Shown in pieces: positions 43,397 through 49,270 of a DNA stretch of 64,000 nucleotides; position 1 is the stretch's first letter; each line of letters opens with the position of its first letter. This DNA is from Candidatus Aenigmatarchaeota archaeon (GTDB lineage: Archaea > Aenigmatarchaeota > Aenigmatarchaeia > CG10238-14 > SCSR01). A program made the translations under genes and the position numbers. The notes beneath the pieces were generated by a model, which saw only the letters and a program-made list of their open reading frames with translations, was not told where the DNA came from and did not search any database. The stretch is from positions 1-64,000 of the forward strand of contig JAWBTW010000001.1 of assembly GCA_039000165.1 (NCBI GenBank). Direction: 5' to 3'.

Positions 43397-43454
43397 AATG
43401 AAATTTTAGAAAAAAAGCTTTTAAGATTATAGTAACTCAGATAACTAAGTTCAG

Positions 43455-43599
43455 CGCCGAGGCTGGGATTTGAACCCAGAAGGGGCAAAGCCCCACCAGC
43501 TTTCTCAACTCACCTCCGACTCATCATTAGTCAGAGTCAAGCCATTTTATCATTGAAAGACTCAAGGCTGGCGCGTTAGCCAGGTTCCGCCACCTCGGC
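43455..43599 (-). tRNA. tRNA-Ser(TGA) with 59-nt canonical 37/38 intron (43502-43560)
   Basis: GCCGAGG/CCTCGGC acceptor, CCAGC-CTTGAG|A-GCTGG anticodon arm, long variable arm, G73. Confidence 0.93.
43502..43560 (-). ncRNA. intron-encoded box C/D sRNA
   Basis: C ATGATAA, 12 nt, D' CTGA, 3 nt, C' ATGATGA, 12 nt, D TTGA; terminal TTC/GAA stem. Confidence 0.8.
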
Positions 43600-45596: not shown

Positions 45597-46556
45597 TTAT
45601 TTGAAACTTGGATAAGTTCCAGGTTTTATGAAAACCTTATCAGTTTTTATTGCTATCCCTTTTTTCCTTTCAAACATTTCCTCGCTATTCAAAACAGCTT
45701 TTCCTAAGGCAACTAACTCTTCTTTCAAAGAATAAACAGCTACTATTTCATTTTTCTCTATTCCTTCTTGAATTCTTGTTAAGCCTGAGCAGAAAACTGG
45801 CGCTCCATGACAAATTGAATCGACAGCAGAATCTTTAACAAAAACTCTTTTTAAGTGCAAAACAGCAAACTCAACAGGAATCAAAATTTCTTTTAAAAAT
45901 TTTTCATTTCCTTCTTTCCAAAATTCATAAGCATCCCTAATCTCCACTAAGGAATGAGCCTGCTCTTCAGTAAAATTTCCTGCTTTTGTCCTTCTTAGCT
46001 CAGTTAAATGAGCTCCTATTCCTAAGCTTAAGCCTAAATCGCTAACAAGCTTTCTTATATAAACTCCAGCTTGGCATCCAACTTTAAACAAAACATCCTT
46101 TCCTTCAATTTCCAAAATATCAAAAAAATAAACTTTTTTTTCTCTTGGTTTTCTTGCAACTGCACTTCTTACAGGCGGGACTTGAACTATTTTCCCAACA
46201 AACTTTTTTACTCCTTCTCTTAAAATTTCTTCATCAACTTGCTTGTGTAAGTGCATCACTCCTACGTATTCTTTATCTAAACCTAAAAGCACACTCATAG
46301 CTTTTGTTGCGTTATCTAAGGCTACAGGTAAAACTCCGGTCACGCCAGGATTTCCTCAAAGTTCTAAGGTCCCAGCATGACCAGCCTTTTTTGCTTGAAA
46401 TATTTCCTTTACCCACTGAGTTACTTGATGGCTTGTTGGTCCTGCATGCTTATCAACTATTATCACTGAATTTTTTATTTGCTCTTCTATGCTTCTCTCG
46501 CTAGGTCTTTTACCATAACTTTCGTCAGTTTCTTCCTCTGCTTTAATCAGCCAGAT
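45597..46556 (-). CDS. cbf5: H/ACA RNA-guided pseudouridine synthase Cbf5, interrupted by a 12-nt intron (46352-46363)
   Basis: Exon 1 ...DKHAGPTSHQV...KKAGHAGTL-G, exon 2 AT-PGVTGVLP...QVPPVRSAV...PUA; 315 aa after splicing; probable ATC start. Confidence 0.9.
46352..46363 (-). other. bulge-helix-loop pre-mRNA intron in cbf5
   Basis: AACTTTGAGGAA carries an in-frame TGA; CCTT/GAGG central helix; 13-bp exon-exon helix. Confidence 0.88.
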
Positions 46557-47497
46557 TTTTTCACCCCCTTGACTTTAAGGCCATGCGCAAAAAACTCTTT
46601 TATCATAAGAAAAACAAAGACTATAGCTGCTATAAGAATTACTAGAAAAACTGGAAACAGTTGAGAGGAAATTTTCCAATTTCCTATGGTAATTTCAGGG
46701 AATTGGATATTGCCAATAGACCAAGTTGGAAATTGGATTTCGCCTTGAGGTTTTTGAGTTTGAGTTGTAATTTTTTTAACTTTTATGCTAAAAGGAAAGG
46801 TAAAGTTACACTCTCTACTAGTTACGTTTAAAACAAAAGAATAATACTTGTCCTCAGTTAAATTTGGTGTTACAAAATCAAACTTTATGTCAACATAACC
46901 AAAAGGAGGAAGGGAAACTAATTCTAAAGGTTTAGGATAAACTTTAAGCTCAGAAAAAATTGAGTAGTTTAAGCCAAATAAACTGTTACCTAAGTTTGTC
47001 ATTCTTACGGAATAATTTATTGTTTGAGAAGAGTTAAACTCCTGAGCTTGTAGACTAAAGTTTACATTGCAAGAAAGGTTCTGTGAAGTTTCATTCCTCA
47101 CATTTGTTATATTTGTTGTGTTTTTAATAACAATAAAATCTAGGAAAGGTTCAACAGTTACCGAAGTTCCGTTTATATCTTCAGCAGTGATGTTTGCTAA
47201 CACATAGTAGCCTTCTTTTTCTTTTATTGAAGAAAACCATAAACCATTTCTGTTTGTCCCTATTTCAAGGCTAAGATTAATGATTTTATAGCCAACTACC
47301 TTAAAATCTAGAGTATGAGTTAAAAGAGTTGCATAAACTTTTGTTACGTTAGTATCAGAAGTAACATTAGCTGAGAGAATTAAAGAAGTGTTTTCATAAA
47401 CTATTCCTTTAGGAGTGAGTCTGTAGGAGTTTATAGAAATGGCTTGAGAAACTGGAATTAAAAGGAAAAAAATTAAGAGCAAGAGTGACTTCTTCAT
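46547..47497 (-). CDS. cell-surface glycoprotein (signal peptide, Ig-like, C-terminal TM)
   Basis: Signal peptide, many NxS/T sequons, C-terminal anchor. Confidence 0.7.
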   Translation of the reverse strand: MKKSLLLLIFFLLIPVSQAISINSYRLTPKGIVYENTSLILSANVTSDTNVTKVYATLLTHTLDFKVVGYKIINLSLEIGTNRNGLWFSSIKEKEGYYVLANITAEDINGTSVTVEPFLDFIVIKNTTNITNVRNETSQNLSCNVNFSLQAQEFNSSQTINYSVRMTNLGNSLFGLNYSIFSELKVYPKPLELVSLPPFGYVDIKFDFVTPNLTEDKYYSFVLNVTSRECNFTFPFSIKVKKITTQTQKPQGEIQFPTWSIGNIQFPEITIGNWKISSQLFPVFLVILIAAIVFVFLMIKEFFAHGLKVKGVKKSG

Positions 47498-47522
47498 AAT
47501 TACTTTTTTGTTAAACTTGGAA

Positions 47523-48359
47523 TTATTTCTTTCCTTTTTTAGGTTTTGTCCAAAATCTTATCGCAACAACAATTATTGCCACGATTGCTAATATAATAGT
47601 TGCTAAAAGTTGTGGGCTGCTTGTTATTAAACCAAATAAACCTGTTGGAATTGGTGCTATTATCTCCTCTTGATAAGGAGTAATTTTGCTGCTTTTTGCT
47701 TCTAGTTGATAGGTTTTTCCTTTAACCTTGAAGGATACCTTTGCTATTATTTCCCCTTCTTCTAATGAAGGATAAACCGAAAAGTAAGAGACTTTTGTTT
47801 CACCTGGTTTGATTTCTTGAGTTACTTGTGAGGGAGTATAATTCCATGTTTCTGGAACACTTAAGTTTAGAGACACACTTACAGTTTCTGATTCTTCATT
47901 TTTAATTCCAATTCCAAAACTAAACTTTTTATCTGCTAATACAGACTCAGGCTCTATTAAATATTCAACACTTACTTTCGGAACCTCTTCCTTTTTAACT
48001 TCTAAGTCAACTGTTTTTATGTCATAAAATCTTGGAGAAGATAGCTTTACGTATAGCTTGTAATTTCCTTCGAGATAACTTGGAATTGTTAAATTAACCT
48101 CAATATCTTTTGTTTCTTTTGGTTGAAGCTCAAAAGATTTTGGAAAAATTGTAGCACCAGAGATTCCGCTTACTTCTAATGTTAAGTTTGCAAGAGTTGA
48201 ATTGAGCAAGTTTGTTGCTTGAACTTTAAAGCTTACCGTAGAGCCTGCGTTTACGCTTAAATTTTGTGGGACTGAAAGCTTAAAAGGAAGAAAGAAGTAT
48301 GCTCTAACTAAAGGTAAAGATAGTAAAATTGCAGCTGCGAGTATTATAAACTTTTTCAT
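47523..48359 (-). CDS. cell-surface protein with NEW3/Ig-like repeats
   Basis: Signal peptide, VPETW and IKPGETK motifs, C-terminal TM. Confidence 0.7.
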   Translation of the reverse strand: MKKFIILAAAILLSLPLVRAYFFLPFKLSVPQNLSVNAGSTVSFKVQATNLLNSTLANLTLEVSGISGATIFPKSFELQPKETKDIEVNLTIPSYLEGNYKLYVKLSSPRFYDIKTVDLEVKKEEVPKVSVEYLIEPESVLADKKFSFGIGIKNEESETVSVSLNLSVPETWNYTPSQVTQEIKPGETKVSYFSVYPSLEEGEIIAKVSFKVKGKTYQLEAKSSKITPYQEEIIAPIPTGLFGLITSSPQLLATIILAIVAIIVVAIRFWTKPKKGKK

Positions 48360-49270
48360 GCTGTTTCACCCTTTTTCATAGTTTCTTCCTTTTTCCTTAT
48401 TTCCTTAGATTTATACATACCATAAATGTTCCAGGCTATGATGATTAAAAAGATTATGTTTAAAACTATAAGAACTGGTGAAATTTCCTGAATCGCAGCT
48501 AAATAGCTTGTTATTTCTTCCTCAGGAAATTCTTCTTCAGGTTTAAATGAAATGGGGGTTAAAATTGGCCCAAGTTTTGTAAAATTGGCCAATTCTCCCT
48601 TATAAGGATATTCAAGTACTATTGAAACACTTCCTGTTATGTTTGAGGGGGTAATGTTAAAGGTTAGAGTGGAAGCCTCACCTGGTTTAAGTTTTAAAGA
48701 TTTAATTCCATCTTCATAAACCCATTGTTGAGGGAGTTTTAAGTAAATTTTTATTTCTTCTTCAACACTTCCTTTATTCTCTATGGTAACGTTCAAAGGA
48801 AAGCTTTGGTTTTCTATTATAGTTTGCGGGACTATTATTCTTGAAAGAGAAAATTCTGCCTTTGGCTTTGCTCTAATTTTTAAAGTTGCTACTCCTTCTG
48901 TCCTGTAGGCAGTGTAAGTTTCTTGAGCTATAATAGTTGCTACATAAACCTTTTCTTCTTCTATGTTGTCAGGGATTTTTATTTTAAGCTGGAATTCTCC
49001 TGGTTTAGTGAAAGGAATAACTTCAAAATAATCTGGCTCGATCACGTAAGTAAGAGGCAAGTCTTCAACAAAGACAAAAACTTTTCTCATCCAAGTTCCT
49101 TTTGAAGAAATCTTTCCAGAGACTACTATTTCTTCTCCTGCAAAACCTTCAATCTCTTTTGGCAATGTTACAATCAATTTTCTTCTTGTTGGAGATATGG
49201 AATTTGCTACCTCAACAAAGGTTAAGCTTACTACCAAACAAGCAATAACAGCTAAGGCTAATTTTTTCAT
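48356..49270 (-). CDS. cell-surface protein with NEW3/Ig-like repeats
   Basis: Signal peptide, IENKG, LPQQW and LKPGE motifs, C-terminal TM. Confidence 0.7.
   Translation of the reverse strand: MKKLALAVIACLVVSLTFVEVANSISPTRRKLIVTLPKEIEGFAGEEIVVSGKISSKGTWMRKVFVFVEDLPLTYVIEPDYFEVIPFTKPGEFQLKIKIPDNIEEEKVYVATIIAQETYTAYRTEGVATLKIRAKPKAEFSLSRIIVPQTIIENQSFPLNVTIENKGSVEEEIKIYLKLPQQWVYEDGIKSLKLKPGEASTLTFNITPSNITGSVSIVLEYPYKGELANFTKLGPILTPISFKPEEEFPEEEITSYLAAIQEISPVLIVLNIIFLIIIAWNIYGMYKSKEIRKKEETMKKGETA

Follow-up and report, generated by a model that had tools for sequence, protein, structure and literature searches.

The only cbf5 gene found in the genome of a Candidatus Aenigmatarchaeota archaeon (GenBank assembly GCA_039000165.1, referred to below as G000; 783 kb in 25 contigs, 91.6% complete) is interrupted, within the codon of its catalytic aspartate, by 12 nucleotides (nt) that are very likely a genuine micro-intron spliced by the tRNA splicing endonuclease, belonging to the bulge-helix-bulge class in its relaxed, bulge-helix-loop form. 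The gene lies on the minus strand of the window, by which we mean the whole stretch of 64,000 nt analysed here (contig JAWBTW010000001.1, positions 1 to 64,000); DNA of this genome is present in hot-spring metagenomes. The protein of the window, translated with X at the internal stop, matches the DKCLD, TruB_N, TruB_C_2 and PUA domains, a set that, judged from these domain matches, is the archaeal Cbf5/dyskerin architecture. Both the identification of the gene and its assignment to a DPANN-like lineage had been made in a preliminary description of this DNA, and both hold, the relatives of this cbf5 gene that are up to 97% identical being Candidatus Aenigmatarchaeota.

Positions 46382..46338 of the minus strand read GGT CAT GCT GGG ACC TTA G^AACTTTGAGGAA^AT CCT GGC GTG ACC (^ marks a point of cleavage here and below), exactly as previously described. 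Under translation table 11 the unspliced frame runs KAGHAGTLEL-stop-GNPGVTGVLP, and the in-frame TGA at 46358-46356 breaks the gene into two open reading frames (ORFs) of 36 and 248 amino acids (aa). Intron-less relatives have GHAGTLDPxVTG at the equivalent place; where the catalytic Asp codon is expected, the window is longer by four codons. The insert, 46363..46352, splits the G from the AT of that codon; its excision gives TTA GAT CCT and the protein GTLDPGVTG, in agreement with the claim that an in-frame stop disappears and the aspartate returns once 12 nt are removed. The resulting gene is organized as follows.

46364..46556, minus strand: cbf5 exon 1, from a putative ATC (Ile) start at 46556-46554 to the G of the Asp codon at 46364
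46352..46363, minus strand: putative 12-nt intron AACUUUGAGGAA, which holds the in-frame TGA at 46358-46356
45597..46351, minus strand: cbf5 exon 2, beginning with the AT of the Asp codon and PGVTGVLP..., stop codon at 45599-45597

Exon 1 encodes the DKCLD region and the motif ...DKHAGPTSHQ...KAGHAGTL, and exon 2 the remainder of TruB_N followed by TruB_C_2 and PUA. The ATC is probably the start codon, because in-frame ATG, GTG and TTG are absent and the ATC is preceded by GGGGGTGA: no such codon was found upstream of the conserved N-terminus (window 46554-46556, minus strand, and upstream to 46568). The GGGGGTGA element sits at Shine-Dalgarno distance before the ATC, which is the first conserved codon of cbf5. 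The same situation is common to G000 and four relatives (G001, G002, G003 and G005), while G004 has a nearby in-frame GTG and G012 an ATG.

For the 61 nt that surround the site, the computed folding energy is -30.7 kcal/mol, compared with a mean of -14.47 kcal/mol (standard deviation 2.64) for 200 shuffled sequences, none of which folds as well as the native one (z = -6.15). The computed structure has the following elements.

46370..46384, minus strand: 5' strand of the exon-exon helix, 15 base pairs (bp), codons Ala-Gly-His-Ala-Gly-T
46336..46350, minus strand: 3' strand of the exon-exon helix, 15 bp, codons (D)-Pro-Gly-Val-Thr-Gly
46366..46369, minus strand: 5' strand, CCUU, of the central 4-bp helix H; exonic, Thr-Leu codons
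46354..46357, minus strand: 3' strand, GAGG, of helix H; intronic
46351..46353, minus strand: 3-nt bulge AA^A, with the predicted 3' splice site between 46352 and 46351
46358..46365, minus strand: loop AG^AACUUU, with the predicted 5' splice site between 46364 and 46363

In this fold 46384-46370 pair with 46350-46336, so that the 13-bp exon-exon helix of the preliminary description lies within a longer helix of 15 bp. The AAA bulge and the CCTT/GAGG helix were both recovered where they had been placed, at 46353-46351 and at 46369-46366/46357-46354. The 8-nt loop AG^AACTTT is a matter of definition: the minimum-energy fold extends the 4-bp helix by two weak pairs (A-U and G-U) and leaves a loop of 4 nt, and if these pairs are ignored the loop is AGAACUUU (8 nt), as proposed. 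With a 4-bp helix, an AAA bulge on the 3' side and a 5' site in a loop that takes the place of the second bulge, the RNA has the bulge-helix-loop form that had been suggested; the two sites are thus separated by a 4-bp helix in the relaxed arrangement, and the strict arrangement is not found in G000. In crenarchaeal cbf5 introns, cleavage is predicted between residues 2 and 3 of each bulge (Yokobori 2009, PMC2738675). The same rule applied to the window gives UUAG^A and GGAA^A and restores GAU at the junction, and this is the sole excision that recreates GAU, except for an equivalent one-base slide over identical A's. The structural cleavage rule and the coding requirement thus agree independently.

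Introns in cbf5 pre-mRNAs of Crenarchaeota have reportedly been described by Watanabe (2002) and Yoshinari (2006). According to Yokobori 2009 (PMC2738675), they occur in Desulfurococcales and Sulfolobales, lie between letters 1 and 2 of the catalytic Asp codon, measure 16–44 bp, for the most part have the unconventional (relaxed) motif and are linked to a hetero-oligomeric (alpha-beta)2 endonuclease. The preliminary description had invoked this classic intron, and the published site and phase bear it out; its remark on the small size also holds, 12 nt lying below the published range. The insert of G000 and the crenarchaeal intron are alike in gene, codon and phase, in the exon-exon helix, in a 4-bp helix made of the Thr-Leu codons and the 3' end of the intron, in splice sites two nucleotides from that helix, and in a patchy distribution that implies gains or losses. 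They differ in lineage, which here is DPANN (Aenigmatarchaeota); in length, 12 nt against the published 16–44 bp; in the endonuclease, G000 having one EndA gene and not the hetero-oligomeric type; and in the inner hairpin, which G000 lacks, so that its 5' site sits in a loop.

As a positive control, 301 Thermoproteota genomes were scanned, 297 of which gave a match, and among the best 150 of these 297 we retrieved 16 genes flagged because they held stops or because their match began at residue 67, together with two unflagged ones. All 16 flagged genes, and neither of the unflagged ones, carry inserts of 17–39 nt between the same G and A. These inserts have the same exon-exon helix and 4-bp helices such as CCCU/GGGG, CCUU/GAGG and CUCU/AGAG; their 5' splice sites are mostly AG^A and their 3' sites AA^A, AG^A, AU^A or AC^A, and an inner hairpin makes the 5' site a true bulge. 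Cleavage of crenarchaeal cbf5 introns by EndA has been published (PMC2738675). Compared at the level of sequence and predicted fold, the putative G000 intron is the Thermoproteota plan minus the inner hairpin.

Two further kinds of archaeal introns invite comparison. Relaxed tRNA introns (hBH or bulge-helix-loop in the nomenclature of Marck and Grosjean, as given in PMC6379350) are cut by broad-specificity endonucleases and, like the G000 element, combine one canonical bulge and a 4-bp helix with a loop in place of the other bulge; its length is also near the published minimum of 11 nt for an archaeal tRNA intron (PMC2738675). The host RNA of G000, however, is an mRNA, and its exon-exon helix is made of coding sequence. 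The HVO_1309 intron of Haloferax volcanii is likewise an EndA-processed intron in an archaeal mRNA (PMC7714728; PMC10485636), but it lies in the 5' untranslated region of another gene in another lineage and interrupts no codon. Reviews of 2020 and 2023 count endonuclease-spliced mRNA introns in two archaeal genes only and confine the cbf5 intron to a small group of related Crenarchaeota. A 2020 paper likewise gives the crenarchaeal cbf5 intron as the one other mRNA intron of this kind on record. Our literature search, which did not extend to subscription-only papers and supplements, found no report of cbf5 introns in DPANN archaea or anywhere outside Crenarchaeota. Very probably, then, the intron is of a known kind, the crenarchaeal cbf5 Asp-codon intron, and what is new is the DPANN lineage, the minimal size, the single-subunit endonuclease and the gain or loss among close relatives.

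The distribution of the insert among Aenigmatarchaeota was examined at successive taxonomic levels. All six genomes of the genus have a 12-nt insert at the Asp codon, which varies only at positions 2–4 (ACT, GCT, GAT, AAA), the last 8 nt being invariant. At the level of the order, 118 genomes were searched, cbf5 was found in 107 at E <= 1e-20, and all 19 genes flagged with internal stops were examined. Eleven of the 19 have an Asp-codon insert: the six of the genus, G029 (12 nt, another family), G093 and G019 (15 nt each), G059 (13 nt) and G072 (14 nt). Among the other flagged genes, an insert at a second site is found in G097 (and also in G059), G034 has a point TAG, and six have stops outside the aligned core. 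In the class-wide scan (371 genomes searched, 319 with a match, the best 150 of 319 listed), all three stop-bearing genes among the listed matches outside the order have Asp-codon inserts, of 30 nt in G140 and 15 nt in both G216 and G125, and these represent three further families of the class. Since only the best 150 matches were considered in each of the class- and phylum-level scans, the counts are lower bounds: at least 14 Aenigmatarchaeota genomes (13 besides G000) have an Asp-codon insert, of 12–30 nt. The longer inserts of G140, G125 and G216 retain small inner hairpins.

The 14 Aenigmatarchaeota motifs were aligned and 19 pairs were counted against the named structure. Standard pairs occupy 87.6% of the cells, as compared with 38–49% when the 3' partners are slid by 1–3 columns; both sides change in 8 of the 19 pairs, and none of 500 shuffles attains the covariation score. 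Covariation of the kind expected of protein-spliced introns is thus observed. In the 4-bp helix 98.2% of the cells are paired and two of the four pairs change on both sides, the second being C-G in ten sequences and U-A in four, and the third U-A in eight, C-G in five and unpaired in one (G093). The 5' strand of helix H consists of synonymous variants of the Thr-Leu codons, and the intron strand follows along. All 14 have the same AAA bulge and the same G ahead of the 5' cut. Of the 15 possible pairs of the exon-exon helix, the 14 intron-bearing genes form a median of 13.5 (range 8–15) and 88 distinct intron-less genes a median of 9 (range 5–13), a background that is high because the Gly-His (GGN CAY) and Val-Thr (GUN ACC) codons are complementary at 4 of 6 positions whatever the wobble bases.

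G000 encodes both an endonuclease and a ligase for such introns. One EndA gene of 188 aa was found (G000:C4:31804-32367; both Pfam domains, E 1.5e-27 and 1.4e-18), and RtcB was identified at E 1.4e-165. No second EndA-like gene was detected in this 91.6% complete genome with PF01974, PF02778 or a self-search at E <= 10. Compared with the homotetrameric EndA of M. jannaschii, six additional residues (within KLKRGPKAP) separate the catalytic Tyr from the catalytic His in the G000 enzyme; this insert aligns to the catalytic subunit of N. equitans without gaps and to the ARMAN-2 enzyme with one. A 'Nanoarchaea/ARMAN-2 specific loop' (L3) occurs in single-subunit EndAs of several DPANN lineages and is associated with many disrupted tRNA genes (Kaneta 2018, PMC5829648), and from this alignment the six residues of the G000 enzyme are probably the L3 loop. 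It is plausible that the single-subunit EndA of G000 accepts a loop in place of the second bulge, because it shares the insert with the broad-specificity enzymes of Nanoarchaeum and ARMAN-2.

These elements suggest the following course of splicing. In the cbf5 pre-mRNA, the codons flanking the catalytic Asp would pair into the long exon-exon helix, adjoined by the 4-bp helix of exon CCUU and intron GAGG, with the AAA bulge on the 3' side and the loop on the 5' side. The single EndA would cut two nucleotides past the 4-bp helix on each strand, at UUAG^A and GGAA^A, and RtcB would join the ends, recreating GAU (Asp) and opening the frame for a full-length Cbf5. That cleavage and ligation take place in this pre-mRNA is what the sequences lead us to expect.

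Several points weigh against splicing by EndA and RtcB. The 5' splice site lies outside a canonical 3-nt bulge, and the minimum-energy fold pairs the G of this site with U in the two-pair extension of the 4-bp helix. G000 yielded a single EndA gene, even at E <= 10; its best solved relative is the homotetramer of M. jannaschii, a type described in PMC6379350 as cutting strict motifs only, and a broad specificity of the G000 enzyme would depend on the putative loop insert. Among the relatives, restoration of Asp is partly a matter of construction, the regular expression with which inserts were located having demanded G...A[TC]CC, and some motifs are imperfect: the 4-bp helix of G093 contains a C.A mismatch, and in G125 no more than 8 of the 15 outer pairs form. 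Finally, kin are not independent, and the nominal p of 1e-7 for the helix counts is inflated by relatedness.

The alternative closest to EndA splicing accepts a real RNA-level intron but has it removed by another nuclease, by self-cleavage or by an endonuclease with a second subunit missing from the assembly. The position of the 5' site in a loop and not a bulge, the description of single-subunit EndAs as strict (PMC6379350) and the 91.6% completeness, which would allow a second subunit outside the assembly, are in its favour. However, the 4-bp helix, the 3-nt bulge and cuts two nucleotides off the helix constitute the substrate geometry of EndA and match the Thermoproteota cbf5 introns, for which cleavage by EndA is published; 12 nt are too short for a ribozyme; and single-subunit DPANN EndAs with the extra loop occur in genomes rich in disrupted tRNA genes (PMC5829648). 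We consider this alternative improbable.

Slightly less probable still is a pseudogene or split gene, in which the insert is retained and the product is either no Cbf5 or two fragments without the catalytic Asp, perhaps with only the structural role in the H/ACA particle kept. The two ORFs of 36 and 248 aa would be read in this manner by a gene caller, and a GTG codon (Val of PGVTG) follows the insert; but the codon after the insert is no start in G072 (GCA), G216 (GTT) or G125 (GCA). When the 12 nt are removed from the six cbf5 genes of the genus, the ratio of nonsynonymous to synonymous substitutions (dN/dS) is 0.07–0.17 in all 15 of the 15 pairs, on both halves of the joined frame, with synonymous divergence (dS) up to about 1.0. 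Such values indicate that the spliced frame is under purifying selection and the gene in use. Moreover, the helix strand and the bulge are invariant in 6 of 6 species, the arrangement recurs in at least eight more genomes with compensatory pairs, and a second copy of cbf5 that could replace a broken one was not found in G000.

Translational recoding, in which the TGA would be translated, by read-through or by decoding as, say, selenocysteine, or the insert skipped by a hopping ribosome, leaving four extra residues or a bypassed segment, is very unlikely. The G000 insert, being a multiple of three with a single in-frame TGA, is compatible with it, and ARAGORN, with introns allowed, labels one gene as tRNA-SeC, probably a mis-call. 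Relatives, however, have TAA in place of TGA and at other codon positions, and their inserts of 13 and 14 nt shift the frame, so that read-through or recoding fails as a general explanation. An Asp codon would be missing from any translated or hopped product, since GAT exists only after removal of the 12 nt; a search of G000 (91.6% complete) for SepSecS found nothing at E <= 0.01, and the RtcB and EndA genes are free of internal stops. An assembly or sequencing artefact, conceivable in that the window comes from a metagenome-assembled genome, can be dismissed, because the insert at 46352-46363 is bridged without indels, with at least 44 letters on each side, by contigs from two further runs, one of a different sample (X4, record 10) and one of an independent study (X5, records 16, 18 and 19), and is carried by five other species-level genomes. 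The bridging contigs include a variant, 46362 T>C on the plus strand, which is A>G at intron position 2, as in G001. No RNA run holding this DNA was found, and the four short contigs of X10, a run labelled metatranscriptomic but flagged as probably DNA (share 0.10), leave 46257-46421 uncovered.

The endonuclease-spliced intron thus remains by far the best account of the insert, and G000 was screened for others like it. A loose screen (outer helix, 4-bp helix and 3-nt bulge) returned 28,173 structural candidates, 240 of which restore an ORF, mostly at boundaries of neighbouring genes. A strict screen (at least 8 contiguous outer pairs) returned 1,764 candidates, as compared with about 915 in three shuffles, and 12 of these restore an ORF; the 11 besides cbf5 were rejected as gene boundaries or intact ORFs. 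No further credible mRNA intron was therefore found in G000 by this screen, which is blind to weak outer helices. With introns allowed, ARAGORN called 45 tRNAs in G000, 22 of them with introns, and several calls are spurious (introns of 800 and 1,806 nt among them); this is a rough sign that tRNA introns are common. In the window itself, 43454-43599 (minus strand) was called in this mode as a tRNA-Ser(UGA) with a 59-nt intron, a gene that the default ARAGORN run does not give.

Some cbf5 genes of the order contain other interruptions. A second intron site, between the Thr and Ser codons of GPTSH, is occupied by 21 nt in G097 (L033) and by 20 nt in G059 (L034), the latter gene having both introns. 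In these elements an ACA bulge and an AAA bulge are found together with an inner hairpin (GGAGC UUAA GCUCC) and a 4-bp helix, one pair of which shows a compensatory change (U-A vs C-G). At the equivalent place in G000 (about 46436-46425) there is no insert, and no earlier report of an mRNA intron at this site was found. The cbf5 gene of G019 (L038:821-2422, plus strand) contains, besides its 15-nt Asp-codon intron, 534 extra aa in frame between ...YVRKL and DLG..., in which Intein_splicing (E 1.1e-20) and LAGLIDADG_3 (E 2.6e-15) are matched, so that one gene would be interrupted at both the RNA and the protein level. In G034 (L019), a TAG replaces the Glu codon of AHLTELRR without change of length; the TAG may be due to a nonsense point mutation, to a sequencing error or to some other cause, but it is not an intron.

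Upstream of the window's cbf5, three successive ORFs of 316, 278 and 304 aa occupy 46547-49270 (minus strand), and the start of cbf5 overlaps the end of the nearest one (46547..47497). Judged from their translations, they look like cell-surface proteins: each has a hydrophobic, signal-like N terminus, is rich in N-x-S/T sites and carries, towards the C terminus, another hydrophobic segment with basic residues after it.

The introns extend beyond the Aenigmatarchaeota. In the phylum that includes a 'Candidatus Woesearchaeota' genome, 301 genomes were searched and 291 gave a match (a tally that takes in G917 and G918, both unpublished, on neither of which any claim rests), and among the best 150 of these 291 there are four stop-bearing genes. 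Two of them have Asp-codon introns of the same plan, 15 nt in G782 (L146) and 18 nt in G821 (L147), so that at least two genomes of this phylum are concerned; in the other two the stop lies at the C-terminal end of the aligned gene. The survey of cbf5 in these two DPANN phyla adds at least 13 Aenigmatarchaeota genomes and at least two of the second phylum to G000, and the extension of range beyond Crenarchaeota that was suggested for this single gene now comprises at least 14 and at least two genomes, respectively.

On a FastTree phylogeny of 103 distinct Cbf5 rows (sequences below 250 aa, duplicates and two unparsed loci having been dropped, and the sample being enriched for intron-bearing genes), the Asp-codon intron requires at least eight changes, six of them forced by well-supported branches. 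In genus g20, G093 has an intron at the Asp site, G097 one at the second site, and G024 neither. Within a family the introns look related (...ATTGAGGAA; AACTTTGAGGAA vs AACTTTAGGGGAA). An identical 15-nt intron, AAAATAATTGAGGAA, is present in G093 (L032) and G019 (L038), which belong to different genera and whose Cbf5 proteins are not sisters in either tree, and this hints at exchange of introns or at strong constraint. In a 'quick' IQ-TREE analysis of 84 rows, a single branch (support 90) separates the 14 intron-bearing genes of Aenigmatarchaeota from the 16 of Thermoproteota, and the genus of G000 lies inside a 42-row cluster composed entirely of Aenigmatarchaeota (support 94). The phylogeny therefore gives no sign of a recent transfer of the whole cbf5 gene from Thermoproteota, one form of the transfer that the preliminary description had considered. 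The intron may have an ancient origin followed by many precise losses, may have been transferred by itself, or may have been gained repeatedly at a structurally predisposed site. Since the 3' end of the intron is dictated by pairing to the Thr-Leu codons, likeness to the crenarchaeal intron in sequence cannot separate homology from convergence.

We tentatively propose, as a possibility that is far from established, that the catalytic-Asp codon of cbf5 is a recurrent landing or retention site for endonuclease-spliced introns, occupied independently in Thermoproteota and in at least two DPANN phyla, because the Gly-His...Val-Thr-Gly codons are intrinsically complementary and supply a ready-made exon-exon helix. 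If this is true, the turnover of the introns would be fast, with gain, loss, shrinkage to a minimal bulge-helix-loop of 12 nt and the use of a second site in GPTSH; the introns may couple the production of Cbf5 to the capacity for tRNA splicing; and a single-subunit EndA with a DPANN-type loop would splice mRNA. With at least 14 Aenigmatarchaeota genomes and at least two of the Woesearchaeota-containing phylum, the codon-splitting cbf5 intron, very likely spliced as outlined above, is now placed among DPANN archaea, and its length can fall to 12 nt. Gene callers will give cbf5 as broken or split in such genomes, distorting their annotation. Close relatives with and without the intron provide a natural series for the study of intron gain, loss and shrinkage, and the loop-type structure frames a biochemical question, that of mRNA substrates for the single-subunit endonucleases of DPANN archaea.

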